From: a virus
Direction: 5' to 3' (one strand)
Length of the DNA: 63,250 bases
Virus record (IMG/VR): IMGVR_UViG_3300048905_000034
Coordinates: 1 to 63,250 of that record
Position 1 is the first letter of the stretch, and every line of letters begins with the position of its first letter. Shown here piece after piece: positions 3,084 to 27,697 of this stretch. The notes under the pieces are model-generated. The model saw only the letters and a list, made by a program, of their open reading frames with translations. It did not search any database and was not told where the DNA came from. The translations under genes and the position numbers were made by a program.

Positions 3084-4556
3084 CTACGAGAGTACCGGCT
3101 GTGTCGGCGATTGCTCTGCTGAGCCGCGTGGCTTGTAACCGAAAATGCTCCCAAGGGTGCCCATGGCAGTTGGTCGCCCAACTGCCTTGAGGGTCCGCCC
3201 GGAGGGAACGGCGATCTGCGCGGGGCCGGTGCGGGTGTTCAGCGCGGTAATTCCGTGGACCAGCGCATCCACCCGGTCAGGGGAATCGTTCATGTCCGGC
3301 ACCCATTCGGTCATCTGCGTCTCCAGATCGACGAAGGCCCGGACGTGATGAACCCGCTCCTGCTCGTACAGGCCGACGATGGGTTCAGCGCGGAGCACCT
3401 TGCCGCGCCGTGAATGCACAAGGTCCACCTTCCCGTCCTTGCGCTTGGTCCGCAGGGTGGAGAGAACCATCTCGCCGCCGTAGTTCTTCTCGGCCACGAT
3501 CAGGTCCGCCTCATACAGGTCGTACGCCCGCCAAGCCTCGGAGGCCCAGCCGTCCGGGGTGTAATGCCCGGAGTGGTCCGCGAGGACGTAGAAGTGATCG
3601 CCCATGATGCCGATGACGACGATGCCGGTTTCGTCACGCTTCTTCGAGGACGTGCCAGCGGGGTCGATAGCGACCACGATCCGGTCCATGTCCTTGTGGG
3701 TGATTTCGGCGATGGGCCGGTTGTCCTCGATCATGTTCCACTTCCACAGCGCACCCACGATGTCGTCGAGGACTTCGCCGTAGAGTTCCTGCAGGCCGAG
3801 CCGGGTGCCCTCGTACTTGGACAGGACCACGTTGCGGAACGTCGGCGCGAGGTTGTCCATATTGGCGTAGGTGGAGACAGTGACGGCCCGGGTGGTCGGG
3901 GTGTCGATCAGTTCCTTCAGCCACTTGGTCGGCAGCGGCGTGGTGGTGCATAGGACCAATGGCCTCTTGCCGAAGCGCAGGCCCATCATCATCATGTCCC
4001 AGACGGATTCGATCATCGGGTAGTGAGCAGGCTCATCGAGCCAGACCGCACCGTGGTTAGGCCCACGGAGGCGGTCAGGTTCCTCGCCGGTAAAGGCTTG
4101 GATTCGGTGCTCGTTGTAGCGGCCCTTGCCCGGGACGGTGATCCTGCGCTTGGACGGCTCCCACAGCGCGTTGACCTTCGCCTTCTCGAACGCCGCAAGC
4201 AGGCCGGACTCGCCTTCAACCATGATGTCGCGGACGTGGGGGAGGGTCGGGCCGATGATCGAGGTGTAGGCGATGGACTCGGACATCTTGCGAATCCACT
4301 CCGAGCCGCAGCGGGTCTTGCCCGAACCACGCCCGCCCTTCTGCAGCCACACCAGCCAGTCCGGGTCCTCCGGGGGCCACTGGTCACCACGGGCATGGCG
4401 GTAGTCGTACTCGTCGTGGGGCTGGCCGTCGCAGGAGCGACCCTTCTTGCAGTACCAGACCTGCCGGTCCTTCTCCATGGTCGCAACCATGGAGAGCAGC
4501 TTCTCCTTGGACTTCGGGTCCCAGTTCTTCCACTCGTCCAGATTCAGTTCCGGCAT
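3084..4556 (-). CDS. terL: terminase large subunit
   Basis: Walker A GGRGSGKT, Walker B VWLDE, RNaseH-like nuclease half (AIDPAGT...). Start moved to ATG 4556 (RBS GGAAAGG, no overlap); the track start 4592 is the alternative. Confidence 0.9.
   Translation of the reverse strand: MPELNLDEWKNWDPKSKEKLLSMVATMEKDRQVWYCKKGRSCDGQPHDEYDYRHARGDQWPPEDPDWLVWLQKGGRGSGKTRCGSEWIRKMSESIAYTSIIGPTLPHVRDIMVEGESGLLAAFEKAKVNALWEPSKRRITVPGKGRYNEHRIQAFTGEEPDRLRGPNHGAVWLDEPAHYPMIESVWDMMMMGLRFGKRPLVLCTTTPLPTKWLKELIDTPTTRAVTVSTYANMDNLAPTFRNVVLSKYEGTRLGLQELYGEVLDDIVGALWKWNMIEDNRPIAEITHKDMDRIVVAIDPAGTSSKKRDETGIVVIGIMGDHFYVLADHSGHYTPDGWASEAWRAYDLYEADLIVAEKNYGGEMVLSTLRTKRKDGKVDLVHSRRGKVLRAEPIVGLYEQERVHHVRAFVDLETQMTEWVPDMNDSPDRVDALVHGITALNTRTGPAQIAVPSGRTLKAVGRPTAMGTLGSIFGYKPRGSAEQSPTQPVLS
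3166..3185. repeat. PAL20 copy; G-variant on the transcribed (-) strand
   Basis: gcagttggtcgcccaactgc on +, which is the reverse complement of gcagttgggcgaccaactgc; inside the TerL 3' end, read as AVGRPTA. Confidence 0.9.
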
Positions 4557-4561
4557 CGCAC

Positions 4562-4948
4562 TTACCTTTCCGAGAGTTCTTGGATCAGCCAAGCGCCGTA
4601 GCCTTGGCCGTTGTCAGGAGCGGGGGATTGGGGCACGCGCTCGTCGACACCCTTTGGCTTTGCAGTGTGACGGATGACCTCAGTGAAAGCCATGCCGAGG
4701 TCCTTGGCGATGAACGCAGCAGTGGCGCGGCGGACGTAGCCGGTCATCCCGATGCCCCGGCGCTTGGCCGCTTCATCGAGGAGCACCCGGAACGGAACGT
4801 CGTAGTAAATCCACGTCCCGCTCTTTCGGGACTTCGCTGGCTTCTTCCCCGACTGCCGTGCCCGCACCCGGGCGATGGCGTTCTCCATCCAGAGCGGGTC
4901 CTCGTCCCGGTCGGACCACCCCTGCAGATCAGGGTTGTAGTTGACCAT
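4562..4948 (-). CDS. hypothetical protein, 128 aa (possible ribbon-helix-helix fold)
   Basis: ATG 4948 overlaps the TerS stop by 1 nt (TGATG); beta-strand then helices pattern IYYDVPFRVLLDEAAKRRGI. Confidence 0.55.
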   Translation of the reverse strand: MVNYNPDLQGWSDRDEDPLWMENAIARVRARQSGKKPAKSRKSGTWIYYDVPFRVLLDEAAKRRGIGMTGYVRRATAAFIAKDLGMAFTEVIRHTAKPKGVDERVPQSPAPDNGQGYGAWLIQELSER

Positions 4949-5484
4949 CAGTCCACAACATCCGCGTCGATGATGTCCGCTTCCTCGGCCTCGGGTTCCT
5001 TCCGGGCCAGCGCCATCATGTGCGCGACGTACTGCTGAAGGTGCTCGTCGGTCGGGGTGATCGCAACCTGTGTCGGTGCGTCCACGCCCCACAGGCGCAT
5101 GATGCGGTCGGTGATCGCCAGCGCCCTCGCGTTGTAGGCGAGGTGGTCCGGGTCCTTGGTATCCACGGCCTTGCCCATGGTGGACTGAAGCAGGCGGTTG
5201 AGCCGTTTGTCGGCGAGCACCCTTTGCTGGTCCCGGTCCTCGGGGGAGTCGGCGGACGCGGCCAGCACCCGCTCGACTGCCAGCCGTGCCCGGGTGGCAG
5301 ATGCGTAGCCGAGGGCCTTGGCGATGTTGGTGTACGAGGTGCCCGCGATACGCAGGGCCAGCGCGGACTCGGCCTTGGTCGCCGTCTCGGACATCACGAG
5401 GTCCGCGTTCGGGTCTTCCCCGGCTTCGATGGCCTTGGCGAACGCCTTGGCCCCGGTCATGATCCGGGCTTCCTTGTCACCCAT
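4948..5484 (-). CDS. terS: terminase small subunit
   Basis: 178 aa, HTH LRIAGTSYTNIAKALGYASATRA; lies upstream of TerL with one 128-aa ORF (4562..4948) between them. Confidence 0.7.
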   Translation of the reverse strand: MGDKEARIMTGAKAFAKAIEAGEDPNADLVMSETATKAESALALRIAGTSYTNIAKALGYASATRARLAVERVLAASADSPEDRDQQRVLADKRLNRLLQSTMGKAVDTKDPDHLAYNARALAITDRIMRLWGVDAPTQVAITPTDEHLQQYVAHMMALARKEPEAEEADIIDADVVD

Positions 5485-5632
5485 TGAGGTCGCTCCATAC
5501 GACGCAGCCGCAGAGACGGTAGTCGACGATCTTCTCCACCATCGACTGGGTCCGTACGTCCCAGACGACTGCTATTTCGGTGCGGCTGAGGGGGCCATGC
5601 CAGTTCTCTTCGGTTTCATGCCAGCCGTTCAC
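5477..5632 (-). CDS. hypothetical protein, 51 aa
   Basis: GTG 5632 overlaps the ParB-like stop (GTGA); the stop overlaps the TerS start; below the track's 60-aa cutoff. Confidence 0.45.
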   Translation of the reverse strand: MNGWHETEENWHGPLSRTEIAVVWDVRTQSMVEKIVDYRLCGCVVWSDLNG

Positions 5633-6210
5633 AGGTCAGCCGTCCTTGCCTGCTCCGGGTAGCGCTCGATCAGTTCGGCGAACAGGGTGTCCCGGTCGTC
5701 GCCGTTCTCGAAGTCCACCACCACCTGATAGATGCCGGACGGGGCGGCGTCCCCGAAGCCGCCGCCGTTGGGAATGTCGGGGTCCGCCATCATGTCCAGC
5801 AGCAGCCGCTGGTATGAGGCATCGTCGTAGCCGGTACCTGCCAGCCCAAGGTCCGAATCGGAGAGGTCCGTCAGGAGTGCTGCCAGTGCGGAGTCGTCGA
5901 GGATGGCGAGCTTGCCGGTGCGGTTGTCCGCGATCATGTAGCGGACAGCGCCGGAGTCGTCCATGTGGTCGACCCAGATGACCGGGATTTCCGTGGCCCC
6001 CAAGGCGTGGAGCGCCTGATAGCGGTGGTTGCCCGCGATGATGTTGCCGGTACGGGCATCGGCGGTGATGGCGGTGACGAAGCCGTTGACCTGAATGGAC
6101 TCGATCAGCGCATCGAGGTCGCCGTTGTTGGGGTTCTGCGCGTGCTGCTGGACCCTGTCGATTGGTACCAGAAGCGGGCGGACCCCCTCCGCGAATCGAA
6201 CTGCTTTCAT
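5629..6210 (-). CDS. ParB N-terminal domain (ParB/Srx-like) nuclease-family protein
   Basis: Motifs NPNNGD...SIQVNGF...IIAGNHRYQAL...IPV; no C-terminal HTH seen. Confidence 0.8.
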   Translation of the reverse strand: MKAVRFAEGVRPLLVPIDRVQQHAQNPNNGDLDALIESIQVNGFVTAITADARTGNIIAGNHRYQALHALGATEIPVIWVDHMDDSGAVRYMIADNRTGKLAILDDSALAALLTDLSDSDLGLAGTGYDDASYQRLLLDMMADPDIPNGGGFGDAAPSGIYQVVVDFENGDDRDTLFAELIERYPEQARTADL

Positions 6211-6341
6211 CGGTACTCTCCTACGAACAGGCAGCGCTTACAGTGCCAGTATTTTGCCGGGGCGGACGGGTGGGGCGACTTCTCGTGGAAGCCGAGGGCG
6301 CACAGGATGGGCCGCTCGTACCACTTGGTCAGTTGCTTCAC
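6207..6341 (-). CDS. hypothetical small Cys/His protein, 44 aa
   Basis: GTG 6341 overlaps the upstream stop; the stop overlaps the ParB-like ATG; ...CALGFH...HCKRC. Confidence 0.45.
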   Translation of the reverse strand: MKQLTKWYERPILCALGFHEKSPHPSAPAKYWHCKRCLFVGEYR

Positions 6342-6511
6342 TTCCGCTCCCGGGGGTACGCGGTCGGCCTGCCCTTGAACGATGCAAGGAGAGCGCGCAG
6401 TCCCTTACCGGCAGAGCCGTAGGTGCGGGCGAGGGACTCGACCTCCTGCTTGGTCAGGCGAACGCTGACGATTTCGGACCGTGCGGCCTGTCCAACGGCT
6501 GGTCTAGGCAT
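6338..6511 (-). CDS. hypothetical protein, 57 aa (possible RHH-type DNA binder)
   Basis: ATG 6511 preceded by GAAGGAGAA and by PAL20; SEIVSVRLTKQEVESLAR pattern. Confidence 0.6.
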   Translation of the reverse strand: MPRPAVGQAARSEIVSVRLTKQEVESLARTYGSAGKGLRALLASFKGRPTAYPRERK

Positions 6512-6731
6512 TGTTCTCCTTCGGCAGTTGGTCGCCCAACTGCTGCTTTTCGTGCCTGCCCGGGACGCGCAGGGATTGCGCGTAGGTGCTGATTCTGGAG
6601 GACAACGCCCATGCCGCATTGGCCCCGGCGTAGTCCCCACGGTTGCTGCGGTTGTTGCCGACACGCTCGACCTTCCGCACCAGCCCCATCAGGCGGCGGT
6701 AGCGCGGCAGGTTCTCATCCGGTACGTGCAT
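6504..6731 (-). CDS. hypothetical protein, 75 aa
   Basis: ATG 6731 with RBS GAGGAA; its 3' end reads through PAL20 as QLGDQL. Confidence 0.5.
   Translation of the reverse strand: MHVPDENLPRYRRLMGLVRKVERVGNNRSNRGDYAGANAAWALSSRISTYAQSLRVPGRHEKQQLGDQLPKENNA
6524..6543. repeat. PAL20 copy; G-variant on the transcribed (-) strand
   Basis: gcagttggtcgcccaactgc on +; 13 nt upstream (sense) of ATG 6511. Confidence 0.9.
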
Positions 6732-6876
6732 GGGTCGGTTCCTCGCAATCGTTGGTATATAGCCCCGAAGTGCCGCTGAGGATATTCCTTATCCCGCCCA
6801 CGTCGATCCGCCCGCACCCCCATTCGTTTTCCAGTACGAACAGCGCCTGCTTGATACGAGCTTCGGCATCACACAT
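6715..6876 (-). CDS. hypothetical protein, 53 aa
   Basis: Internal ATG 6876 of the track ORF 6715..6993, with strong RBS GAAGGGGAG 6 nt upstream. Confidence 0.5.
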   Translation of the reverse strand: MCDAEARIKQALFVLENEWGCGRIDVGGIRNILSGTSGLYTNDCEEPTHARTG

Positions 6877-7028
6877 CTGTGCTCCCCTTCGGCAAAGTGT
6901 ATTACGAAACCAATCATGCACCGGGGGAGGAGGCTTTGGTAGGGTTGTGACGCCCCGGTCGGGTTGGTGCGTCTGAGAACACGTGCCGAGCACGCCCCAT
7001 ACGTGTGATTCTGACCGGGCACCCCCTT

Positions 7029-7072
7029 AGAAACACGAAGGCCCCCGGCGCATCCTGCAGCGCGTCGGGGGC
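7029..7072 (-). terminator. intrinsic terminator-like hairpin after the nuclease gene
   Basis: Sense GCCCCCGACGCG-loop-GCGCCGGGGGC (11-bp stem, one wobble) followed by CTTCGTGTTTCT. Confidence 0.6.
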
Positions 7073-7081
7073 TTTCTTGGT

Positions 7082-7453
7082 TTAGCGCGTACCGCCGAAG
7101 TAGGGCTTGGCCAGCCCCTCCTCGATCAGGACCTCATCGAGCCAGCGCCCGTCGGGGAGCAGGATGCGCACCAGCCACCGCTTGTACTTGTCCTCGGGCC
7201 GGGGCTTGTACGTCTGGACCCTCACCGGCTTGCCGACCGGGCAAAGTTCCGCAGAGCGGGCCTTGGCTTCGCTGTAGTTCGTGTCCCCCCGCTCGGGGGT
7301 GTCGCAGCCCCAGATGCGGAACTCCAGCAGGTGCCGGGCGGTGGTGAAGACCCGGAAGCCGTTGTCCATTTCCTTCTCGACCCACATCCAGTCGGTGTCC
7401 CCGTCCACCCAGCGCTGCGGGATGCCGAGGTAGTCCCATCCGGCCTCAGTCAT
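7082..7453 (-). CDS. staphylococcal (micrococcal) nuclease-like thermonuclease
   Basis: DGDT...FRIWGCDTPERGD...RW motifs of the SNase fold; RBS GAGGGGGAG. Confidence 0.75.
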   Translation of the reverse strand: MTEAGWDYLGIPQRWVDGDTDWMWVEKEMDNGFRVFTTARHLLEFRIWGCDTPERGDTNYSEAKARSAELCPVGKPVRVQTYKPRPEDKYKRWLVRILLPDGRWLDEVLIEEGLAKPYFGGTR

Positions 7454-7608
7454 GACTCCCCCTCGATGACCTTGGCGACGATGTCGATGATGGCCTCAGC
7501 CTCAGCCAGATTGGGGTCGCTGCACAGCGGGGAGCAGTCGCAGGGGTAGTTGAGTCGCAGGAACCCGGCTACGCGGGAGATGGCCTGCTCGCGCTGGCGC
7601 TCATTCAC
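7450..7608 (-). CDS. hypothetical protein, 52 aa
   Basis: GTG 7608; coding-like frame ...RQREQAISRVAGFLRLNYPCDCSPLC...; the stop overlaps ATG 7453. Confidence 0.4.
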   Translation of the reverse strand: MNERQREQAISRVAGFLRLNYPCDCSPLCSDPNLAEAEAIIDIVAKVIEGES

Positions 7609-7750
7609 CGGAGCCGACCCAGATGCGGTCTGAGGTGATGCGGTCTGTGGTGATGGTGCCGTCCCAGTCGCTCAGGAACCCGTCCACGAAGGCTTGGGCG
7701 GCGGCCTCGTGGAATCCCGGCTGGCCCCGGCGCGGGCTGTCCTCAGTCAT
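7601..7750 (-). CDS. hypothetical protein, 49 aa
   Basis: Internal ATG 7750 of the track ORF 7601..7819; ATGA overlap with the upstream micro-ORF. Confidence 0.45.
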   Translation of the reverse strand: MTEDSPRRGQPGFHEAAAQAFVDGFLSDWDGTITTDRITSDRIWVGSGE

Positions 7751-7848
7751 GCCGCCACCGCGACAACCCAGAGGGTGCTGGCGATGATGGCCCCGAAGAT
7801 CACGGCCCAGACAAGCCACTCCAAAAACTCACGCATATGCTCGGTCAT
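7747..7848 (-). CDS. small membrane protein, 33 aa
   Basis: MTEHMREFLEWLVWAVIFGAIIASTLWVVAVAA; ATG 7848 overlaps the upstream stop. Confidence 0.5.
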   Translation of the reverse strand: MTEHMREFLEWLVWAVIFGAIIASTLWVVAVAA

Positions 7849-8279
7849 TCCGCACCTGCCCTGCACTCAGCGGCCTCTGCCTTCATTGGCATGGTCAATT
7901 CCTTCAGTTTAGGGTTCACGGCGTCCAGATCGGCGTTGGCTTTCTGGATTGCGGCCACGTCGAAGGTGCTGGCGGCGATCATTGCGTCGGACATGTAGCC
8001 CATGGCCTCGGCGGCGAGTCCGAAGCCCTGCTCGGAGAGGTCGAGGGCTTCCAGACAGGCGGCGGGGGTGCGGGGGACCTCCTTGGTGACCACCCGCTCG
8101 GGGCCGGGGACGTTCTTGATGACCTCGACGGGCTTGGGCTTGGCTGAGGCCGCACCAGCCGCCCCCAGAATCATCCCGCCGATGAGCAGGGCCACCGGGA
8201 ACACCAGTTTTTGCCGGTACCAAGGTTTGGGCCGTTCAAGCTTGGGCGGGAGTGGTGCTGGAGGTAGGTACGTGCTCAT
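7845..8279 (-). CDS. membrane-anchored protein, 144 aa
   Basis: One TM helix (LVFPVALLIGGMILGAAGAASA) after a Pro/Lys-rich N-terminus. Confidence 0.7.
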   Translation of the reverse strand: MSTYLPPAPLPPKLERPKPWYRQKLVFPVALLIGGMILGAAGAASAKPKPVEVIKNVPGPERVVTKEVPRTPAACLEALDLSEQGFGLAAEAMGYMSDAMIAASTFDVAAIQKANADLDAVNPKLKELTMPMKAEAAECRAGAE

Positions 8280-8423
8280 TTTGTCCCCGGTTTTCTGTGG
8301 AGTTTTGTGTAATACGTTTATTATGGCCGGGCACCGGGGGTTCCCACCCTCCTACGCCCCTTGGGGCAAAGAAATTTTTCAGAATGCCCCCCGTATTACG
8401 GAAACCTCCCGGGAAATTCCGGG

Positions 8424-8630
8424 TTATTGGAGAAACAGGCCCCGTTTTGTCCCGTCCTTTTCGACGATGGTGAAGGTGGCCCCCCGTTCTTGGGCCTCAT
8501 AGAGGTGGAGAAACAGTCGGACCCCCCGCCTGACCAGTTCGGTGAGGGTCGCCCCGGTGGATTCGGAGTGCCCGTCCATGGCCACTTTGAGGTCGGTCGG
8601 GATGTTGATGGTCAATCGGTGAAGTGTCAT
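8424..8630 (-). CDS. ribbon-helix-helix (CopG/Arc/MetJ-type) DNA-binding protein; first gene of the leftward arm
   Basis: LTINIPTDLKVAMDGHSESTGATLTELVRRGV is a beta-strand followed by two helices, typical of RHH. Confidence 0.75.
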   Translation of the reverse strand: MTLHRLTINIPTDLKVAMDGHSESTGATLTELVRRGVRLFLHLYEAQERGATFTIVEKDGTKRGLFLQ

Positions 8631-8636
8631 TCATAC

Positions 8637-8665
8637 ATTATATGACCGTTCATATGGGGTATGAA
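8637..8665 (-). promoter_or_regulatory. SigA-type promoter giving a leaderless RHH mRNA
   Basis: Sense TTCATA - 17 nt - TATAAT - 6 nt (gtatga) - ATG 8630. Confidence 0.5.
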
Positions 8666-8672
8666 CCACGTG

Positions 8673-8695
8673 GCAGTTGGTCGGGCAGTTGGTCG
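8673..8695. repeat. two tandem (direct) PAL20 half-sites
   Basis: gcagttggtcg g gcagttggtcg, 12-bp register, 8 bp upstream of the -35 of the leftward promoter. Confidence 0.85.
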
Positions 8696-8809
8696 AGGGT
8701 TTCCGTCATACGGATTCGATCCCAAAAGGAACTTGGATAGCGGGACGGGCAGCGTTACAGGAAGCGAAAAAATCGGGCGTTGCGGGGGGGTGCGGGGCCT
8801 CACCGGAAA

Positions 8810-8826
8810 TCAACCGATTTAGGTTG
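8810..8826. repeat. 17-bp repeat, copy 1 (TCAACCGATTTAGGTTG)
   Basis: Internal dyad CAACC-N6-GGTTG; an identical copy lies at 8889-8905. Confidence 0.85.
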
Positions 8827-8888
8827 CGATTAACCCGCATAACCTACACACCCGATACCGTCCGTATCGCATACCCAGTATGTACCTG

Positions 8889-8905
8889 TCAACCGATTTA
8901 GGTTG
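8889..8905. repeat. 17-bp repeat, copy 2 (TCAACCGATTTAGGTTG)
   Basis: Identical to 8810-8826; followed by a further GATTTAGG. Confidence 0.85.
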
Positions 8906-9017
8906 ATTTAGGGCCACTTTTATAACGATATGGTAACGAAACCCTTCCTAACTCTTGACATTCCTACCCGCACACTGTGTTCTGACTCTGCGGGCAATTC
9001 CTGCCCAGCAACCGGCG

Positions 9018-9037
9018 GCAGTTGGGCGACCAACTGC
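9018..9037. repeat. PAL20 copy, G-variant
   Basis: gcagttgggcgaccaactgc; 19 nt upstream of GTG 9057. Confidence 0.9.
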
Positions 9038-9056
9038 CAGAGCACAGGAGAACAAA

Positions 9057-9839
9057 GTGGCTACCAACACCAGCACCAGCAACACCAGCACAACCGCCGT
9101 AGTCGTACCCGCAAGCGCGGAAGCGGCACTGATCGAATCGAACGCGCTGGAAGCGCTCAAGCAGGCATACAAGCACCAGCAGGCGGAATTGACCCAGCAC
9201 GAGGACATCCGCAAGCAGGCGGAAGCGGCGAAGCAGACAGCCGCCGTGTGGATGGCGCGTATCGCCCACAGGGTAGCGACTCACCCGGCAGTTGCCACCA
9301 GTCGTTACCCGTACAACATCACGGGCGCGGCGAAGGCTTTGGATGTGCCTATCTCCACGTTCCGCCCGTATGCCCTTGCGGGTGAGGTGTTGGGGCGGAA
9401 GGATCGCGCCGGACTCCTGTCTGTTCCCGCGCTGGAAGACATCACCATTGTTGAAAAGTCTTTCGACGCAACGACTCGTGCGGAGCAGAAGGCTAAGCGC
9501 GTGAAGGCGGCCGCAAAGCAGGCACAGTTGGAAGCGAAGGCGAAGGAACTGGAAGCGCTGAAGGCGAAGCAGGGCGGCACTCCTGCCGCTCCTGCGGGTA
9601 CTCCTGCCGCTCCTGCTGGCGCTCCTGCCACTGCGGGTACTCCTGCCACTGCTGGCGCTCCTGCTGGCGCTCCTGCCGCTCCTGCCGGACCGTCCGTAAC
9701 GGATGACATCCTGCGGACCGCGCGGGAACTGGTGAAGATGTCGAAAGCACAGCGCGCTAACGACAAGCAGGCATGGGCGAAGACGCACGGCGAACTGGTG
9801 AAGGTGCTTGTCGAACTGTTCCCCGGGCTGAAGGTCTAG
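9057..9839 (+). CDS. first rightward gene: HTH-containing protein with coiled-coil and Pro/Ala tandem repeats, 260 aa
   Basis: GTG 9057 after AGGAGAACAAA; N-terminus VATN encoded by ggctaccaac; YNITGAAKALDVPISTFRPY is HTH-like. Confidence 0.65.
   Translation: MATNTSTSNTSTTAVVVPASAEAALIESNALEALKQAYKHQQAELTQHEDIRKQAEAAKQTAAVWMARIAHRVATHPAVATSRYPYNITGAAKALDVPISTFRPYALAGEVLGRKDRAGLLSVPALEDITIVEKSFDATTRAEQKAKRVKAAAKQAQLEAKAKELEALKAKQGGTPAAPAGTPAAPAGAPATAGTPATAGAPAGAPAAPAGPSVTDDILRTARELVKMSKAQRANDKQAWAKTHGELVKVLVELFPGLKV
9577..9688 (+). repeat. in-frame tandem repeats encoding (GTPAAPA / GAPATA)n
   Basis: Reiterated actcctgccgctcctgc / gctcctgccactgc units read directly. Confidence 0.8.
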
Positions 9840-9903: not shown

Positions 9904-9923
9904 GCCGTTGGTCGACCAACTCC
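9904..9923. repeat. PAL20 copy (2 mismatches)
   Basis: gccgttggtcgaccaactcc in the 9840-10215 non-coding gap. Confidence 0.7.
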
Positions 9924-9989
9924 CCCCCTCCCCCCTCCCCCCTGTCCCCCGTGTCCCCTGCACCCGTGTCCGTACCCGTTGGCGCTGGT

Positions 9990-10482: not shown

Positions 10483-10502
10483 GCGGTTGGTCGACCAACC
10501 GC
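10483..10502. repeat. PAL20 copy with a compensatory arm change
   Basis: gcggttggtcgaccaaccgc: A>G at position 3 and T>C at position 18 keep a perfect palindrome. Confidence 0.85.
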
Positions 10503-11227: not shown

Positions 11228-11247
11228 GCAGTTGGGCGACCAACTGC
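11228..11247. repeat. PAL20 copy, G-variant, helix extended to 26 bp
   Basis: ccagcagttgggcgaccaactgctgg (11225-11250). Confidence 0.9.
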
Positions 11248-11617: not shown

Positions 11618-11637
11618 GCAGTTGGGCGACCAACTGC
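11618..11637. repeat. PAL20 copy, G-variant, helix extended to 28 bp
   Basis: gctggcagttgggcgaccaactgccagc (11614-11641). Confidence 0.9.
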
Positions 11638-12332: not shown

Positions 12333-12445
12333 TTCTCTTCCACGAGGGCCGTCACTGGAAAGTCACCGGCAGCACATGGGTGCTGCTCACCAACCAAACC
12401 ACCACCGACCAGTTGGTCGACCAACTGCGGGAAGCAGGGGAATGA
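12329..12445 (+). CDS. hypothetical protein, 38 aa
   Basis: GTG overlaps the stop (GTGA); reads PAL20 as QLVDQL. Confidence 0.4.
   Translation: MILFHEGRHWKVTGSTWVLLTNQTTTDQLVDQLREAGE
12409..12428. repeat. PAL20 copy (1 mismatch)
   Basis: ccagttggtcgaccaactgc; 19 nt before ATG 12447. Confidence 0.85.
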
Positions 12446-12446
12446 T

Positions 12447-12731
12447 ATGTCCGTCTCACTCATCAAGGCCAAGGCCATAGCCCGTACCCCGGAGGCATAC
12501 AGCACCGAGGAACTGGACGACGCGCTGACCCGCATCGTCGAGGATGACCGCCTCTCGGAGGCGCAGGTCACCCGCATGCAGGCGAGGATCGACCCGGTCC
12601 TGCGTGCCCGTATCGCCCAGCGCCAGTCACGCATAGCATCAGCCGTAGTGTGGCCGGACATTCCCCGGTCACCCGCAGTTGGGCGACCAACTGCCGAGTC
12701 ATGCGAACAGAGGATACCCAGTGACCATTGA
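12447..12731 (+). CDS. hypothetical protein, 94 aa
   Basis: Track ORF; RBS GGGGAA; its 3' end reads PAL20 as AVGRPTA. Confidence 0.6.
   Translation: MSVSLIKAKAIARTPEAYSTEELDDALTRIVEDDRLSEAQVTRMQARIDPVLRARIAQRQSRIASAVVWPDIPRSPAVGRPTAESCEQRIPSDH
12675..12694. repeat. PAL20 copy, G-variant
   Basis: gcagttgggcgaccaactgc; 27 nt before GTG 12721. Confidence 0.9.
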
Positions 12732-12903: not shown

Positions 12904-12907
12904 AGCC

Positions 12908-12953
12908 GGGTGCAGGTGAGGTCTTTCGGTTGGTAGCCCCCTCGCCTGCACCC
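12908..12953 (+). terminator. terminator-like hairpin with the conserved loop TTTCGGTTGGTAGCC
   Basis: 14-bp stem gggtgcaggtgagg / cctcgcctgcaccc (one G-U), 18-nt loop, then cttcacgttt. Confidence 0.65.
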
Positions 12954-12963
12954 CTTCACGTTT

Positions 12964-13565: not shown

Positions 13566-13595
13566 TTGACAAGAGTGGTCAAGTCGTGATAGAAT
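13566..13595 (+). promoter_or_regulatory. SigA-type promoter
   Basis: TTGACA - 18 nt - TAGAAT; ATGCCCT box at 13614, PAL20 at 13631. Confidence 0.7.
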
Positions 13596-13630: not shown

Positions 13631-13650
13631 GCAGTTGGGCGACCAACTGC
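13631..13650. repeat. PAL20 copy, G-variant, helix extended to 28 bp
   Basis: gccagcagttgggcgaccaactgctggc (13627-13654). Confidence 0.9.
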
Positions 13651-14310: not shown

Positions 14311-14330
14311 GCAGTTGGGCGACCAACTGC
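14311..14330. repeat. PAL20 copy, G-variant
   Basis: Starts 3 nt after stop 14307. Confidence 0.9.
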
Positions 14331-15195: not shown

Positions 15196-15611
15196 CCGAG
15201 TGGTGGGACAGTGCGGACGCCAGCAGGTACGGCCCGCGCTACTACGACCCCAAGGGCAGGCCCATGAGCATGCGCCGATGGGCGCAGTCGATGGGCAATG
15301 AACGGCACGTAGGCGAGAGCATCCTCCGCATACGTGGCCGGTGGTACCGGGTGTCCACCGTCTGGCTGGGGCTGGACCACAGCTTCTTCGGTGGCCCGCC
15401 GCTGATCTTCGAGACGATGATCTTCGGCGGCGACCGCGACACGGACCTCATGATGTGGCGCTACTCCACCGCAGACGAGGCCATGCGTGGGCACGTGCGT
15501 GCCGTGCGTTTTCTAAAAAGGAACGTGCGCGAGGCACGGCATCCACAACTTATCCACAACGGTCGGAAACCGACAGCAGTTGGTCGACCAACCGCCAACA
15601 GAAAGAAGTAA
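15192..15611 (+). CDS. hypothetical protein, 139 aa, with a LIHNGRKP tail followed by translated PAL20
   Basis: Internal ATG of the track ORF 14790; STVWLGLDHSFFGGPPLIFETMIFGG core. Confidence 0.6.
   Translation: MTEWWDSADASRYGPRYYDPKGRPMSMRRWAQSMGNERHVGESILRIRGRWYRVSTVWLGLDHSFFGGPPLIFETMIFGGDRDTDLMMWRYSTADEAMRGHVRAVRFLKRNVREARHPQLIHNGRKPTAVGRPTANRKK
15576..15595. repeat. PAL20 copy (1 mismatch)
   Basis: gcagttggtcgaccaaccgc; 19 nt before ATG 15615. Confidence 0.85.
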
Positions 15612-16246: not shown

Positions 16247-16753
16247 ATGATCTGCGGCAACGAAACCACCATGTTCGGCGGCGTAAGCACCTGCACCCGG
16301 GATGTCCGGCACCGGGGTGACCACCAGACCATGCCCATCGACGGGCGCATTACCCAGTGGAGTGTGAGTGGCGGCAGTCAGTGGTGGGTCACGGACCCAC
16401 GGCACCTTGGCTGGCAGGTCATCACGTGTCCCGAGTGTGGCGTGCGTCACATACCGGAGTCCAACAGGGTCACGAAAGGTGGGACCTCCTGCTTCCACTG
16501 TTGCTTCTGGGCGCACCGGTTGGCGCAGTACCTGAACGGCGAAGTCATGGTCATCGAAGGGACGTGCTACTCATGGGGCGCTGGGCATGGATTCGGTGGA
16601 CGGGAGTTCACCATCACCATGGAGGACGGAACCACCACTACCCGGCACGGCCTTTGGTGTGGCGGGGTCATCCCATGGGAATACCGGGAGGCGATGCCCG
16701 ACAACGCTACGTTCGGGAGTTGGTCGACCAACTGCGAGGAGGTCATGCCATGA
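16247..16753 (+). CDS. Cys-rich (zinc-ribbon) protein, 168 aa
   Basis: CPECG...CFHCC; its 3' end reads PAL20 as SWSTNC. Confidence 0.55.
   Translation: MICGNETTMFGGVSTCTRDVRHRGDHQTMPIDGRITQWSVSGGSQWWVTDPRHLGWQVITCPECGVRHIPESNRVTKGGTSCFHCCFWAHRLAQYLNGEVMVIEGTCYSWGAGHGFGGREFTITMEDGTTTTRHGLWCGGVIPWEYREAMPDNATFGSWSTNCEEVMP
16716..16735. repeat. PAL20 copy (1 mismatch)
   Basis: ggagttggtcgaccaactgc; 14 nt before ATG 16750. Confidence 0.85.
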
Positions 16754-17135: not shown

Positions 17136-18155
17136 ATGGAAATGCGAACACCCACCGACGTGCTCGCTCTCATCCCGACAGCGATGGAGCGCAAGCCCGA
17201 GGAACTTCTGGTCCTCATCTGCATCAAGGACAACGGCCTGCAAGCGATCCTCGGCATGCAACATTGCACTGACATAGGCGAAGCGGGTACCTACGCGGAA
17301 GCCGTCATCGAACAGATGGTGCAAATGAAACCGGACGCGCTGGTCATGGTGTTCTACACCGAGGAGGAATCCGACTGTAGCCATGAGCCATACGAGCACG
17401 TGGCCATCGTCCTGAAGGTGGCGGTCGAAACGCTCACCCCCATGGAGTGCCACCCCCCCATCCTCGTGAAGGGCGGGCGCTTTCACACCTACGGCACGGA
17501 CGAATGGCATGACCTTGACGAGGTGAAGCAGTCAGCAATGGCTGCGGACTTGGTGCTGCATGGGTTCCAGTTGGAACCAACCGGCCCGGTAATCCCCGAC
17601 CCGACGGCGGTGACCGATGACCTCACCGCACGTATCGACGATGCAGTGTCGTCCATCCCCGAGTTCCCGAAGTACATGACGGATACGTGGGCGACCCCGT
17701 ATGTGGTGGAGCTTCGGCAGTTGTACGACCACCTGCTGAACCGTGGGTTCGGTGCCACTGAAGATGAGGCGGTGCAAGTCATTGCCGCATTCCAATCCCC
17801 GACCCTTCGGGACCGGCTCATGGTGGACACGATCAGCCACACCGACAACGTCATGCAGTTCGGCGAAACGATCACCGGGCTGAGTGATGCGCCGCTGGAC
17901 CATAGCCGTCTGGTCACGGGGCTGGCCCTCATGGACAACCTCATGCAGTACACCGCTGACCGGCACCGGCTCCCCGTCCTCGTCACCTGCGCATGGTTCC
18001 ACTGGATGCTTGGCCGGACGCTGGATGCGGTCACGTACTGCGAGGAGGCGCTGAAGGTGGACCCGGAGTACGGGCTTGCCAAGGCGTTCGAGCGGTACAT
18101 CACTGACCTGATGCGGATACCCGTCCACGTTCTGCACTCGGACGGTCAGGAATGA
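17136..18155 (+). CDS. DUF4192-like protein, 339 aa
   Basis: N-terminus RTPTDVLALIPTAMERKPEELLVLICI and the length resemble the actinobacterial DUF4192 family (from memory, not searched). Confidence 0.5.
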   Translation: MEMRTPTDVLALIPTAMERKPEELLVLICIKDNGLQAILGMQHCTDIGEAGTYAEAVIEQMVQMKPDALVMVFYTEEESDCSHEPYEHVAIVLKVAVETLTPMECHPPILVKGGRFHTYGTDEWHDLDEVKQSAMAADLVLHGFQLEPTGPVIPDPTAVTDDLTARIDDAVSSIPEFPKYMTDTWATPYVVELRQLYDHLLNRGFGATEDEAVQVIAAFQSPTLRDRLMVDTISHTDNVMQFGETITGLSDAPLDHSRLVTGLALMDNLMQYTADRHRLPVLVTCAWFHWMLGRTLDAVTYCEEALKVDPEYGLAKAFERYITDLMRIPVHVLHSDGQE

Positions 18156-18486: not shown

Positions 18487-18704
18487 CAGAAGTTGGTCGA
18501 CCAACTGCAAAGCCCAAACCGCCGAGGGTGGCGCTATGGGTCACGGAAAAAGAACTGCGCATCATCGCCGAGAAGTTCGAGGGGTTCCGTGGATCGCTGG
18601 CTGATGCGATCAGCGAAGCCCACATCGAGGCGAGGAAGGCTCGGACCCAGCACAACAGGGCGCTGCGGCAGTACCGGCACGCAAGAAGGGATATGGCGTC
18701 ATGA
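18483..18704 (+). CDS. hypothetical protein, 73 aa (alternative GTG 18528)
   Basis: GTG overlaps the stop (GTGA); its 5' end reads PAL20 as EVGRPTA. Confidence 0.5.
   Translation: MTEVGRPTAKPKPPRVALWVTEKELRIIAEKFEGFRGSLADAISEAHIEARKARTQHNRALRQYRHARRDMAS
18489..18508. repeat. PAL20 copy (1 mismatch)
   Basis: gaagttggtcgaccaactgc. Confidence 0.85.
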
Positions 18705-19794: not shown

Positions 19795-20218
19795 TGCAGT
19801 TGGGCGACCAACTGCTGTGGGCTTCGTTGTCGCGCTGATACTGAGTGCTTCGTTGGTGATGGGGTCAGGCACGGTAGCGTCCGCCCGTCCCCCCACCCCC
19901 GAGCAAGCCATCGAGGCGCTGGCCCCCGGTCAGCACGTGGTCCTCGGGAATGTGGTGGTGGCGCGTACGGTGCATGGCTTGGTGGTCGACGTGTTGGACC
20001 AGAGTCCGACCACTGCCTCGTTCTGCGGGGTGGCGCTGGCCTCGGCCATCTTCGGGATCGGGGCCGGGATTCTGGGTGTGATCGCTGCATCCACCGGCGG
20101 CTCGGGCACCGTCATGATCGCCGGGTATTTGCTGACCGGCGCGCAGGTCGGCGTCCTAGCTGGACTATCCGGTAGCTACGCCGCATTGCTGGCGTGGATC
20201 AGCCGCTTCATCTGTTGA
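19781..20218 (+). CDS. secreted/membrane protein, 145 aa
   Basis: RBS AAGGAGGAAG; signal-like N-terminus whose n-region is PAL20 read as AVGRPTA; C-terminal TM helices. Confidence 0.6.
   Translation: MVMRSAVGRPTAVGFVVALILSASLVMGSGTVASARPPTPEQAIEALAPGQHVVLGNVVVARTVHGLVVDVLDQSPTTASFCGVALASAIFGIGAGILGVIAASTGGSGTVMIAGYLLTGAQVGVLAGLSGSYAALLAWISRFIC
19796..19815. repeat. PAL20 copy, G-variant
   Basis: Starts 2 nt after stop 19794. Confidence 0.9.
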
Positions 20219-20559: not shown

Positions 20560-20579
20560 GCAGTTGGGCGACCAACTGC
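20560..20579. repeat. PAL20 copy, G-variant
   Basis: 31 nt before ATG 20611. Confidence 0.9.
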
Positions 20580-22563: not shown

Positions 22564-22592
22564 TTGACAAACTACCTAATTCTTGATATAAT
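22564..22592 (+). promoter_or_regulatory. consensus SigA/sigma70 promoter
   Basis: TTGACA - 17 nt - TATAAT; ATGCCCT box at 22613, PAL20 at 22632. Confidence 0.8.
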
Positions 22593-22631: not shown

Positions 22632-22651
22632 ACAGTTGGTCGACCAACTGC
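22632..22651. repeat. PAL20 copy (1 mismatch)
   Basis: acagttggtcgaccaactgc. Confidence 0.85.
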
Positions 22652-24023: not shown

Positions 24024-24067
24024 CGCATCAAGCTCCGGCGAGACAGGTCTGTCTCGCTGGGATAGAG

Positions 24068-24118
24068 GTCCGTGCAGGGGAGATTTCGGTTGGTAGCCGT
24101 CCCTGCACGGACTTTTTT
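24068..24118 (+). terminator. canonical intrinsic terminator with the conserved loop TTTCGGTTGGTAGCC
   Basis: 12-bp stem gtccgtgcaggg / ccctgcacggac, then TTTTTT. Confidence 0.85.
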
Positions 24119-25069: not shown

Positions 25070-25089
25070 CCAGTTGGTCGACCAACTCC
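25070..25089. repeat. PAL20 copy (2 mismatches)
   Basis: ccagttggtcgaccaactcc immediately after the ssb stop. Confidence 0.8.
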
Positions 25090-25405: not shown

Positions 25406-25414
25406 CCGGACATG

Positions 25415-25447
25415 ACGAAGGCCCCGTGTTTTAGACGGGGCCTTCGT
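25415..25447 (+). terminator. terminator-like hairpin
   Basis: acgaaggccccgt - gttttag - acggggccttcgt (13-bp stem); no 3' T-tract. Confidence 0.6.
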
Positions 25448-25461
25448 GCTCGGAACAACTT

Positions 25462-25472
25462 GGCTACCAACC
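25462..25472 (+). repeat. GGCTACCAACC motif
   Basis: 15 nt after the hairpin, in the 210-bp non-coding gap. Confidence 0.8.
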
Positions 25473-25660
25473 CTGAATGAACCGAATTTACCAGCAGTTC
25501 GTAGGAGCAAGGCTCACTAGAGGATCTTTCCGGTACTCCTAATTGTACCGGTTTTGCACAGCATTAGTACAACAGGAGGACACTTTGCAAGACACCACAG
25601 ATGCCCTATGGGGGGCACATCTGATGGCCAGCTACTACATGCACATGGGTGCGTGACTAG

Positions 25661-26413
25661 GTGTCATGGTTCAAGGTAGACGACCGGCTTCATTCGTCCC
25701 GCAAGCTCCTGAAAATCCCCCGCCGGTACCGGCTGGCATGCCTCGGCCTGTGGACAATGGCCGGGTCATGGAGTGCCGATCAGGAGACGGACGGGCACAT
25801 CCCCGACCACATGATCGAGGAGTGGGGAGCCTCCAAAACCCAAGTCGAATGGCTACTGAAGTCAGGTTTGTGGGAGTCCATCCCCGACGAAGATCAAAGT
25901 TACCCGGGGGTAACCGAGGCCGAAGTCCGATTTAGAAATTGGGCCGAGTACCAGCCCACGAAGGCAAAGAATGAACATACCCGAGAGAAAAACCGCGAGA
26001 AGCTGCGGCATTGGAGGGAACGTAACCGGGTTACAGATGAAGATGTAACCGGGTTACAGGATGGTTCGGACCCGGTTAGTAACCCCGCCCCCGTCCCGTC
26101 CCGTCCCGACCCGTCCCGTCCCGTCCATAAAGACTCGTCCAAAACGGACGAGGAGTTCGACCAGTGGTACTCCGGCTACCCCAAGAAGGAAGCCAAGGCT
26201 GCTGCGAAGAAAGCTTTCGCCACAGCGCGGAAGAATGTGGACTTTGATACACTTATGGCTGGGCTTGAGAGGTATGTGAAGTCAGTGAAGGGCAAAGACC
26301 GGCAGTACATCGCACTCCCTGCGTCATGGCTGAATGCCGGACGTTGGGAAGATGAGTTGGTCGCCCAACTGCCGGGGCCAAAGAATGACCCGTACTGGTG
26401 GGCTAACCAGTGA
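25661..26413 (+). CDS. replication initiator / replisome-organizer-like protein (DnaD-like C-terminus)
   Basis: GTG start; 250 aa; directly upstream of and overlapping the helicase gene; C-terminal KKAF..A...........PASWLNAGRWED pattern. Confidence 0.6.
   Translation: MSWFKVDDRLHSSRKLLKIPRRYRLACLGLWTMAGSWSADQETDGHIPDHMIEEWGASKTQVEWLLKSGLWESIPDEDQSYPGVTEAEVRFRNWAEYQPTKAKNEHTREKNREKLRHWRERNRVTDEDVTGLQDGSDPVSNPAPVPSRPDPSRPVHKDSSKTDEEFDQWYSGYPKKEAKAAAKKAFATARKNVDFDTLMAGLERYVKSVKGKDRQYIALPASWLNAGRWEDELVAQLPGPKNDPYWWANQ
25899..26084. repeat. cluster of GTAAC/GTTAC dyads inside the initiator gene (candidate origin)
   Basis: gttacccgggggtaac 25899-25914; gtaaccgggttac 26022-26034 and 26045-26057; ggttagtaacc 26074-26084; then (GTCCC)n 26092-26126. 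Confidence 0.55.
26353..26372. repeat. PAL20 copy, opposite-polarity (C) variant, degenerate
   Basis: tgagttggtcgcccaactgc; in the CDS, read as ELVAQL; 38 nt before GTG 26410. Confidence 0.75.
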
Positions 26414-27663
26414 GCACACTGACGCCTGACGAGTACGTGCTGGGCGCGTGCATGCTGGATCAGGGTGCGGTGCGTACGGCGGCGAACATCATTGGCCCCG
26501 AGGACTTCTGGTCACACGTCCACGGCGGGATGTTCCGGGCCATGATGAAGCTGGCATCCGATGGTGAGGTCATCGAACCCATCACGGTCCTGACACGGGC
26601 GCAGGAGGACGGCGTCCGGGGCGTGGAAATCACGAACCTGTTCAGGATGCTGGAGGGTACGGGGTCGGCGGCATCGGTGGAGTTCTACGCCGAGCAGGTC
26701 AAGGCAAACGCTGACCGGCACCGGTTGAAGTCCATCGCCACGAAGCTGATGCGCGAGGCCAGCGACCCGGCGTGGAAGCCAGCGATGGCGGCACAGTCAG
26801 CATCGGAGGGTCTGAAGAATCTTCAGGCCGGTGGCCCCCAGCGCATGCGGACCAAGACGCTGGAAGAGATTCTGGCTGACCCCGAGGACCACGACTGGCT
26901 GATCCCCGATCTGCTGGAACGGGGCGACCGGCTCATCATCACCGGCTACGAGGGCGGCGGCAAGACGACGTGGATCAGGCAGTTGGTCCTGTGCATGGCG
27001 GCTGGCATCCACCCCACCACGCTCAACCGGCTCGACAAGCCGCTGACCGTGCTGGTGGTGGACGCGGAGAACACCGAGTCCCAGTGGCGGGCGCAGACCC
27101 GGGGCATGGTGACCAACATGCGCCGGATGTCCGGGGTCAACCCGGCGGTATCCATTCATGTCCACGCGAGGGGAAGGATCGACATAACCAAGGACGCAAC
27201 ACTCGGAGAGATTCACCGGCTCGTGGACGAGCACGAGCCTCATGTGCTGGCCATCGGACCCATCTACAAGCTGGTGTCCACCGGCATCAACAACGACACG
27301 GAAGCTGCGCCGGTCATCACGGCGCTGGACTCCCTGCGTGACCGTGGGCTGGCCCTCATCATGGAGGGCCACTCGGTCAAGCCGAACGGACAGACGGGCC
27401 ACCGGGACCTTTCCCCGCGTGGTTCCGCAGCCCTGATGGGATGGCCCGAGTTCGGGTTCGGCATCACCCTCCCCGACCCGGAGGGTGACCCGAGCCTCCA
27501 CCGGATTGTGCGCTGGCGTGGCGACCGCGACACGGGGCGACAGTGGCCGCGTGACCTACGGCGGGGCGGACTGCTCCCTTGGACAGGGGACACCGTCAGC
27601 CGTGGGGCACAGAACCACATCAACAACGTGCAGGCGCAGGACCACTACGCCGCCTACAACTAA
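26410..27663 (+). CDS. dnaB: DnaB-like replicative helicase
   Basis: DnaB N-terminal domain pattern (EYVLGACMLDQGAV...PEDFWSHVHGGMFRAM), Walker A GYEGGGKTT. Confidence 0.8.
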   Translation: MSTLTPDEYVLGACMLDQGAVRTAANIIGPEDFWSHVHGGMFRAMMKLASDGEVIEPITVLTRAQEDGVRGVEITNLFRMLEGTGSAASVEFYAEQVKANADRHRLKSIATKLMREASDPAWKPAMAAQSASEGLKNLQAGGPQRMRTKTLEEILADPEDHDWLIPDLLERGDRLIITGYEGGGKTTWIRQLVLCMAAGIHPTTLNRLDKPLTVLVVDAENTESQWRAQTRGMVTNMRRMSGVNPAVSIHVHARGRIDITKDATLGEIHRLVDEHEPHVLAIGPIYKLVSTGINNDTEAAPVITALDSLRDRGLALIMEGHSVKPNGQTGHRDLSPRGSAALMGWPEFGFGITLPDPEGDPSLHRIVRWRGDRDTGRQWPRDLRRGGLLPWTGDTVSRGAQNHINNVQAQDHYAAYN

Positions 27664-27677
27664 GTGCTACCAGCCCA

Positions 27678-27697
27678 GCAGTTGGGCGACCAACTGC
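27678..27697. repeat. PAL20 copy, G-variant
   Basis: 14 nt after stop 27663, 17 nt before ATG 27715. Confidence 0.9.

Follow-up and report, generated by a model that had tools for sequence, protein, structure and literature searches.

A dispersed inverted repeat with a transcription-biased, tetraloop-like centre in a soil Arthrobacter-type phage genome

For a decade, several actinobacteriophage clusters have been known to carry dispersed conserved inverted repeats, which are usually read as sites of dimeric DNA-binding proteins. Among short repeats of other kinds, REP elements belong to hosts and go with RAYT transposases, and REP-type hairpins are known as mRNA stabilisers. Tuerk et al. reportedly described, in 1988, extra-stable tetraloop hairpins in the intercistronic regions of phage T4, and the conserved inverted repeats of phiC31 are said, after Ingham et al. 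in 1994 and Wilson et al. in 1995, to be DNA operators of the c lysogeny repressor. Cluster O mycobacteriophages carry more than 30 copies per genome of a 17-bp repeat, TGTTCGGNNNCCGAACA, with 7-bp arms and a 3-nt centre; its authors saw little meaning in the orientation of the asymmetric centre (14 vs 6) and favoured a dimeric protein site (PMC4351075). Microbacterium Cluster EG phages have 8-10 copies of an 18-bp repeat, GATCAACCNNGGTTGATC, with a 2-nt centre, at one genome end (PMC7302621), while Cluster A stoperators are asymmetric 13-14-bp sites bound by the monomeric immunity repressor of temperate phages (PMC9283540, PMC6550527). Here we analyse a dispersed 20-base inverted repeat in IMG/VR record IMGVR_UViG_3300048905_000034, a whole metagenome contig of 63,250 bases (the window, meaning the entire stretch of DNA analysed). 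It is a soil Arthrobacter-type phage genome, siphovirus-like, and the centre of its repeat is oriented with transcription more often than chance would allow.

The family comprises 31 sites of an 8-4-8 palindrome with at most three arm mismatches, where none is expected by chance (Table 1). The centre is TCGA at 17 sites, seven of which are perfect palindromes, GCGA at 11, TCGC at two and ACGA at one. The asymmetric variant, GCAGTTGG-GCGA-CCAACTGC, is one base off the symmetric palindrome, and exact matches to GCAGTTGGGCGACCAACTGC number 11 in the window against none expected in shuffles. Gene calling with Pfam anchors places structural genes on the minus strand (1-8615 and 36133-63250) and early and replication genes on the plus strand (9057-36018). 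A preliminary description of this DNA had reported nine exact copies on the plus strand of the plus-transcribed arm and two on the minus strand of the minus-transcribed arm. We recovered the same 11 copies, and comparison of copy strand with the gene map shows that the sense strand reads GCGA in every one. The two copies that it gave as having opposite polarity, 26353 and 29613, are real as well; each has two arm mismatches and lies inside an open reading frame (ORF). The binomial test of polarity that it proposed yields p=0.001 for 11/11 and p=0.022 for 11/13, but the copies are possibly not independent, and the window taken alone is therefore weaker evidence than these p-values suggest. Base composition was rejected as the cause of the polarity, since the sense strands of motif-masked intergenic DNA favour TCGC (21) over GCGA (14); coding-strand hexamers are asymmetric (GGGCGA 38 vs TCGCCC 15), a bias not applicable to sites that are mostly non-coding. 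The observation in the window is thus confirmed as real, with a polarity that is more than chance.

The placement of the sites follows the genes closely. At most of them the 3' end of the motif is 11-45 nt from the next start codon, even where the motif overlaps the end of the upstream ORF, and copies sit just past the upstream stop codon, with the next ribosome-binding site about 5-25 nt to their 3' side. Same-strand junctions are occupied in 15 of 40 cases when longer than 30 nt and in 4 of 60 when shorter. The bases downstream of the copies are C/A-rich, and no T run follows any copy.

We then looked at relatives of the same lineage, that is, about 45 metagenomic and IMG/VR fragments obtained by exact-pattern scans and 65-98% identical to the window in alignment, to which longer loci were added through helicase and terminase homologue look-ups (individual loci carry L numbers below). 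Orthologous sites are present in these relatives. They flip among TCGA, GCGA and TCGC, so that the "fixed polarity" of the preliminary description is too strong a term. Polarity in the relatives is not random either, with 20 sense GCGA against 7 sense TCGC among distinct sequences (14 vs 5 when only exact arms are counted); it is a bias of about 3:1 and no rule. In the relatives' minus arm, all six distinct asymmetric sites are sense GCGA, and GCGA is kept at 6524, 9018, 11618, 13631, 14311 and 27678 despite 20-30% flank divergence. Both the retention of GCGA and the minus-arm orientation favour selection tied to transcription. A near-identity DNA search with the window gave no match among GenBank phages, and IMG/VR single-protein scans with the helicase and the first early protein gave none; Rfam had no match for the repeat, and motif matches in bacterial genomes were single, scattered and unrelated, indicating no host counterpart.

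The capsid protein is 52-60% identical, and the terminase about 65% identical, to those of the cultured Arthrobacter phages Beagle, SilentRX, AWGoat, Rizwana and Tank, and these phages have the genome architecture of the window but carry repeats with other stems. Rizwana has 28 copies of GGGTCGG-N4-CCGACCC, lying 6-18 nt past stops and 16-31 nt before starts, one of them directly after the last early gene. Its sense loops are GCAA (16), GUAA (8) and GCGA (1), the ratio of G..A to U..C loops being 25:2, and the GCAA/GUAA variation falls on position N of the GNRA pattern. The repeats of Tank are similar, and an IMG/VR scan for the Rizwana-type hairpin returned Tank only. SilentRX and AWGoat have 37 and 42 copies, respectively, with the stem of Rizwana and hypervariable loops, which keep G..A, although not always the R; G..A and U..C sense loops stand at 18:2 in SilentRX and 15:2 in AWGoat. 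All stem deviations in these two phages are transitions, giving 18 G·U against 3 A·C in sense and no transversion mismatch, where the G·U cases fall at one common position and overlap between both phages. The helix was extended by its flanks more than permutation would predict both in Rizwana (p=0.010) and in SilentRX (p=0.011). A 2017 survey of Arthrobacter phages does not mention the repeats.

At orthologous sites of SilentRX and AWGoat, stem and flanks are identical while whole loops are swapped (for example GGAA vs UACG). At L180:31024 (SilentRX) and L181:30214 (AWGoat) all four loop bases differ, and one further case is a loop inversion, TTCC vs GCAA-type. As judged from these sequences, the differences indicate probable loop swapping, template switching or conversion between copies, and copy-to-copy conversion would make uniform stems explicable without any binding factor.

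The reading that we prefer, at roughly even odds (a probability of about 0.5), is that the repeats act as sense-strand hairpins, most simply in mRNA, and serve as intercistronic punctuation. The 20-mers would be gene-boundary inverted repeats that, once transcribed, form hairpins with an 8-bp stem and a 4-nt loop in the sense mRNA. A T-to-G change at loop position 1 would convert UCGA into a GNRA (GCGA) loop on the transcript and add about 1.4 kcal/mol, whereas the mirror change, to UCGC, would bring no gain and would be rarer and shorter-lived. Predicted energies of the core hairpin are -13.0 kcal/mol for GCGA, -11.5 for UCGC and -11.6 for UCGA. Because GCGA would stabilise the sense loop and UCGC would not, the polarity could be the footprint of selection on the sense-strand hairpin. 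The hairpin was the dominant predicted structure in every context tested (z from -1.3 to -5.0), with the ribosome-binding site unpaired. As the preliminary description held, GG-GCGA-CC on the sense strand of the 11 exact copies fits the GNRA pattern, closed by a Watson-Crick stem; this loop is not obligatory, UCGA being present in 17 of the 31 window copies. Its proposal of an RNA hairpin function stands insofar as polarity follows transcription at both arm junctions and the cultured phages show the G..A bias, but polarity is not fixed, and flank covariation in this lineage is marginal. The signature of the sense loop in four lineages, namely G..A or GNRA caps, G·U-only deviations and orientation along the genes, argues that a transcript hairpin is selected. 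Such hairpins might stabilise and insulate single cistrons of long polycistronic transcripts, acting as exonuclease barriers, processing landmarks or translation insulators. The identity of stems within a genome would be explained most simply by concerted evolution, through swapping of loops and arms between copies, and a genome-specific binding factor may also contribute.

Several observations weigh against this reading, in the pairing of the repeats and also in the signs of DNA-level recognition that are given with the regulator below. With 12-nt flanks, the sense strand did not fold more stably than the antisense strand, a comparison that the preliminary description had put forward. No helix extension is seen at 21 of the 31 window sites. 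About ten window arm mismatches other than the symmetric A>G / T>C change of copy 10483, which is present as claimed, are uncompensated, and arm mismatches in the lineage are mostly so, with about nine A·C against about four G·U in sense. Beagle has 23 copies of ACTGCCGG-UNNA-CCGGCAGT, with U..A in all loops and no flank extension. Flank covariation in the window lineage is marginal. The flank helices that had been quoted are there or slightly longer (5 bp at 11228 and 11618, 4 at 13631, 3 at 44937), but their covariation is weak: 11228 and 13631 carry identical flanks (acggcca...tggc) and therefore represent one event, and 44937 and 10483, although as described, are symmetric TCGA copies and not the asymmetric variant. 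Sites with an extension of at least 3 bp number 5 vs 1.5 expected, a modest excess (permutation p=0.009; about 0.03 without 13631). The proposed check on shuffled flanks gave a marginal difference, four flank pairs being 40.0% paired vs 35.2% when shuffled, with one slid control at 43.8%. The -1/+21 pair of the window sites showed no covariation beyond its base frequencies, and G·U vs A·C at the first flank break did not discriminate and was unfavourable in the window. In favour of pairing, orthologs of site 11618 in L164 and L112 have GGCCC/GGGCC for GGCTG/CAGCC, that is, two compensatory double changes. Covariation of the 12-bp helix reached 0.155 vs 0.070 in shuffles (0/500; 100 sense-oriented sites); it comes mostly from lineage-wide arm switches, which would be seen in a DNA palindrome too.

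The palindromes could instead be bound as double-stranded DNA by a phage regulator, either a dimer or a tandem binder, and serve genome-wide as operators or elongation roadblocks in the manner of the phiC31 repeats or the Cluster A stoperators, which we regard as possible but doubtful. Centre polarity would then be secondary: one half-site might be tuned to the direction from which RNA polymerase arrives, or an unavoidable transcript hairpin might be selected. The preliminary description had argued that a symmetric DNA binder alone needs neither polarity nor flank covariation, and this argument overlooks concerted arm switches, hybrid half-sites and tandem half-sites next to a promoter. Arms are near-invariant within a genome and switch in concert between related genomes (GCAGTTGG, GCAGACGG, GCTGTTGG/GATGTTGG, GGTGTTGG): the repeat is GCAGACGG-TCGA-CCGTCTGC in L172, has arms GCTGTTGG or GATGTTGG around variable centres in L175, and is GGTGTTGG-ACGT-CCAACACC in L177. 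The centre itself continues the palindrome in the window lineage (TCGA, or ACGT in L177) with CG conserved, and a loop needs neither. Hybrid sites, with a GCAGACGG 5' arm and a CCAACTGC 3' arm, occur at window 33629 and in three other places; their sense polarity is always equal, and their pairing is broken. The tandem half-sites 8673 and 8685 repeat the 12-bp spacing of the inverted arms. A leftward promoter-like site, TTCATA-17-TATAAT (8665-8637), has its -35 immediately downstream of them and precedes a ribbon-helix-helix-like 63-aa gene (8424-8615, minus strand); in L175, an extra direct half-site of its own arm type stands beside the first-gene palindrome. As neither of these can fold, they point to sequence recognition. 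Within the early region, all perfect-arm sites are GCGA (9/9) and all TCGA sites are arm-mismatched (8/8; Fisher p=4e-5), every early site departing from the perfect palindrome in one way only and all seven perfect palindromes lying in the middle and late regions, a split that resembles affinity grading and could reflect graded affinity for a DNA binder. Five early sites also lie 34-39 nt downstream of promoter-like -10 hexamers.

Against such a regulator, most sites occupy gaps of 40-60 nt that have no promoter. Nothing in a symmetric dimer predicts the G..A bias that sense loops show in four lineages, nor G·U-only stem deviations or variation restricted to GNRA (GCAA/GUAA). Candidate binders are also hard to name. 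Neither a repressor nor an integrase was found in Pfam and PHROGs scans of about 40 window proteins, nor are the cultured relatives known to be lysogens. Although the motif is widespread, 5.8 billion proteins include almost no homologues of the ribbon-helix-helix-like protein, which leaves it an unconfirmed candidate. The first early gene (9057-9839, plus strand) encodes a 250-290-aa protein that is 23-32% identical across all these phages and has a helix-turn-helix-like segment (NNxxAAxxL..T.RPY..AG.AL) and a Pro/Ala-rich linker; it matched nothing in Pfam or PHROGs, its profile had no informative solved-structure match, and it does not track stem type, so that it too is unconfirmed as a binder. 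Two further accounts set the mRNA hairpin aside. In one, which we find unlikely, the orientation is selected through linear sense sequence: with the G, the 3' half becomes GGCGACCAAC and differs at a single base from another, sense-oriented repeat, GGCTACCAAC(C), and a factor or RNA would recognise GGC[G/T]ACCAAC and not the tetraloop. The exact copies of GGCTACCAAC all lie at 9-26 kb, the region of the GCGA copies, a recurrent arm variant (T18>C) shifts the 3' arm toward ACCAACCG, and a conserved terminator-like hairpin in the window and four relatives has a loop that is the exact motif complement. Yet GCTACCAACC is unchanged in L172, whose arms are CCGTCTGC, and the two motifs are therefore independent; relatives have GCGA copies in the late arm too, which lacks the 10-mer, and the G..A bias of Rizwana and SilentRX, both without the 10-mer, is left unexplained. 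In the other, which is quite unlikely, the repeats form a DNA hairpin or cruciform (on the displaced non-template strand or the lagging-strand template) or a short-homology recombination linker, used in replication priming or modular gene exchange and maintained by gene conversion. G..A-closed loops are stable in DNA too (predicted -8.3, -7.9 and -7.3 kcal/mol), a Rad52-like annealing protein, a PD-(D/E)XK nuclease, an SSB and a DnaB-like helicase are among the phage's gene products, recombination at the sites is evident from hybrid arms and loop swapping, and Cluster O insertions and deletions are bounded by repeats (PMC4351075). The polarity, however, flips at the divergent and convergent junctions and not at the likely origin (about 26 kb, with initiator and helicase), which fits transcription and not a replication fork, and DNA roles do not need the tight placement relative to stops and ribosome-binding sites.

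Other known classes of element were tried and set aside. An intrinsic terminator was rejected: no U-tract follows the hairpins, which for this reason are not terminators, and no motif copy was among the terminator-like matches. A sigma-70 promoter inside the motif was rejected because no -10 lies at the required spacing, promoter-like sites being found upstream of five copies instead. A REP or BIME element with a RAYT transposase does not fit, as protein scans of the window gave no transposase-like domain and the copies are single units. About 31 copies without boxA-like flank conservation argue against a lambda-type nut boxB, for which no search for an N-like protein was made. As for a stoperator or dispersed repressor operator, the site is palindromic, and the scans described above found no protein of the kind expected.

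Some features of the window lie beside the repeat. In cultured relatives both arms begin at the physical genome ends, and the divergent region 8615-9057 of the window therefore corresponds to joined termini. The GGCTACCAAC(C) repeat has 11 exact copies, 9 of them sense, and 28 with one mismatch vs 3 by chance. It stands in early 5' leaders or over start codons, and several genes therefore begin M-A-T-N; relatives whose palindrome arms differ (L172, L173, L175, L124, L126) have conserved it. A conserved strong hairpin, GTCCGTGCAGGG...CCCTGCACGGAC, is followed by a T-run and has a loop that is the exact complement of GGCTACCAACCGAAA. Its copy at 24064-24115 suggests a terminator-derived RNA that could pair with several early-gene (GGCUACCAACCG) leaders, judging from complementarity. 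Near-perfect extended -10 sigma-70-type promoters stand on the plus strand of the early arm at 13566-13595 (11/12) and 22564-22592 (12/12); as each of these two internal promoters is 35-39 nt upstream of a palindrome copy, the early arm probably consists of several transcription units. A long C-rich low-complexity tract, CCCCCCCTCCCCCCTCCCCCCTGTCCCCC (9924-9960, plus strand), follows degenerate copy 9904 within a 376-nt intergenic region. At the convergent junction, a 15-bp G+C-rich hairpin, CCCCCCACTTCC...GGAAGTGGGGGG (36042-36083), separate from copy 36018 just upstream, is likely a bidirectional terminator. Symmetric TCGA copies (e.g. 31325-31332) contain GTCGAC, the SalI recognition sequence, which either single-base centre variant removes, and the repeat version of L177 contains GACGTC. 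Sites that join two motif types are found at window 33629, L008:7576, L176:2763, L176:13484 and L172:10145; such hybrids may have been left behind when phages that differ in motif type recombined.

Table 1. Repeat sites of the window and associated features (positions in the window unless an L locus is given).
Position	Strand	Feature	Remarks
3166..3185	-	exact GCGA copy	exact-pattern match, gene map
6524..6543	-	exact GCGA copy	12 nt upstream of next minus-strand gene start; ortholog L117:1801 also GCGA
9018..9037	+	exact GCGA copy	19 nt upstream of first early gene; promoter-like TTGACA-17-TGTTCT upstream, -10 hexamer ending 34 nt away
11228..11247	+	exact GCGA copy	62-nt intergenic gap; 5-bp helix extension GGCCA/TGGCC; folding z=-4.95
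11618..11637	+	exact GCGA copy	5-bp helix extension GGCTG/CAGCC
12675..12694	+	exact GCGA copy	overlaps ORF 3' end; 26 nt upstream of next start
13631..13650	+	exact GCGA copy	flanks common with 11228; 4-bp extension; 35 nt downstream of -10 of TTGACA-18-TAGAAT promoter-like site
14311..14330	+	exact GCGA copy	33 nt upstream of start; ortholog L090:1201 also GCGA
19796..19815	+	exact GCGA copy	intergenic; 43 nt upstream of start
20560..20579	+	exact GCGA copy	orthologs GCGA in L124, TCGC in L126
27678..27697	+	exact GCGA copy	between DnaB-like helicase gene and next gene; GCGA in five relatives
26353..26372	+	degenerate copy, sense TCGC (opposite polarity)	within 3' end of replication-initiator gene
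29613..29632	+	degenerate intragenic copy, sense TCGC	orthologs L113:971 and L173:8044 GCGA
31319..31338	+	exact symmetric TCGA copy	abuts stop of Rad52-like gene; orthologs GCGA (L108), TCGC (L075, L173)
36018..36037	+	exact TCGA copy	directly after stop of last plus-arm gene
37256..37275	-	exact TCGA copy	11 nt from upstream gene stop; next start (37136) 119 nt away; ortholog L099:539 sense GCGA
44937..44956	-	exact TCGA copy	in 3' part of 1907-aa tape-measure-like gene; 3-bp flank extension
51153..51172	-	exact TCGA copy	intergenic; 17 nt from upstream gene stop, 29 nt upstream of next start
55301..55320	-	exact TCGA copy	intergenic; 20 nt upstream of start
62798..62817	-	exact TCGA copy	mid-gene; relatives retain motif-type variants of it (GCGA centre, hybrid arm), with altered encoded amino acids
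1387..1406	-	degenerate TCGA copy	inside portal gene; ortholog L004:614 exact sense GCGA
9904..9923	+	degenerate TCGA copy	2 arm mismatches; intergenic
10483..10502	+	TCGA copy with symmetric A>G / T>C change	pairing kept; -10 of promoter-like site ends 37 nt upstream
12409..12428	+	TCGA copy, 1 arm mismatch	18 nt upstream of start
15576..15595	+	TCGA copy with T18>C (A·C in sense)	19 nt upstream of start
16716..16735	+	TCGA copy, 1 arm mismatch	14 nt upstream of start
17717..17736	+	degenerate intragenic GTACGACC-centre variant	same sense polarity in 5/5 copies of this variant across loci
18489..18508	+	TCGA copy, 1 arm mismatch	2 nt after stop, 19 nt before start
22632..22651	+	TCGA copy, 1 arm mismatch	orthologs GCGA (L124), TCGC (L173); 39 nt downstream of -10 of perfect TTGACA-17-TATAAT site
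25070..25089	+	TCGA copy, 2 arm mismatches	abuts SSB gene stop; L124 ortholog TCGC
33629..33648	+	hybrid GCAGACGG-TCGA-CCAACTGC	pairing broken by A·A and C·A; relative L172 uses this type of 5' arm throughout its genome
8673..8695	+	two tandem direct half-sites (GCAGTTGGTCG twice)	12-bp period; hairpin impossible
9059, 10514, 11209, 11665, 12964, 12979, 13658, 15617, 25462	+	GGCTACCAAC(C) copies	
12929, 24089	-	GGCTACCAAC(C) copies	
24064-24115, 12905-12960	+	GTCCGTGCAGGG...CCCTGCACGGAC hairpin	relatives: L173:2348, L126:7231, L172:49, L124:4592
L175:4977-5846; L177:3602-4462; L178:44823-45575; L179:48691-49563; L180:48330-49073		first-early-protein orthologs	

Taken more widely, it is tentatively conceivable that the whole Arthrobacter-type phage clade (the window, Tank/Rizwana, SilentRX/AWGoat and Beagle) punctuates its transcripts with one genome-specific stem-loop used 25-40 times, a dedicated phage factor reading or cutting it and conversion keeping it uniform. 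If so, the loop classes (GNRA vs UCGA) would mark temporal or stability classes of genes, and the "protein-binding palindromes" of other actinophage clusters would be RNA elements of the same system. The question is directly testable in Rizwana, SilentRX and AWGoat, which are cultured and freely available. Compact intercistronic stabiliser or insulator parts for high-G+C hosts might be gained from it, and the fast concerted turnover of stems and loops makes these phages a clean system in which to study how short repeats of viral genomes evolve in concert.

Compared with known systems, the repeat shares with phiC31 highly conserved short inverted repeats at many intergenic sites in the early region of an actinophage, but those are repressor-bound operators, and no equivalent protein was identified in the window. 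With stoperators it has in common tens of short intergenic sites across transcribed regions, an orientation tied to transcription and a genome-specific sequence that evolves with the phage; the window sites differ in being palindromic, and the roughly 40 proteins scanned include neither repressor nor integrase. Like the hairpins of T4 and REP elements, which are thought to stabilise mRNA or punctuate expression, it places short G+C-rich stems with special tetraloop caps between cistrons, whereas the T4 hairpins have no common stem and the window phage reuses one stem about 30 times. Features of the Cluster O and EG type were all found here: many copies, near-invariant arms, start-proximal intergenic sites and positions conserved despite flank divergence. 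The Cluster EG repeat likewise has inverted arms and lies in short gaps between genes, 14-22 bp ahead of start codons, where it is kept despite surrounding divergence, but it has few copies at one genome end and no loop polarity was reported for it (PMC7302621). The Cluster O repeat resembles ours in its invariant inverted arms, variable short centre, position in short intergenic gaps or at gene 5' ends, conservation across related genomes and recombination between copies (PMC4351075); its sequence is unrelated, and the centre in the window is, in contrast, polar with respect to transcription. Thus, this kind of repeat is known descriptively from Clusters O and EG, sense-strand loop polarity appears to be undescribed, and what is new is a strand-polar, tetraloop-like centre across several Arthrobacter phage lineages.

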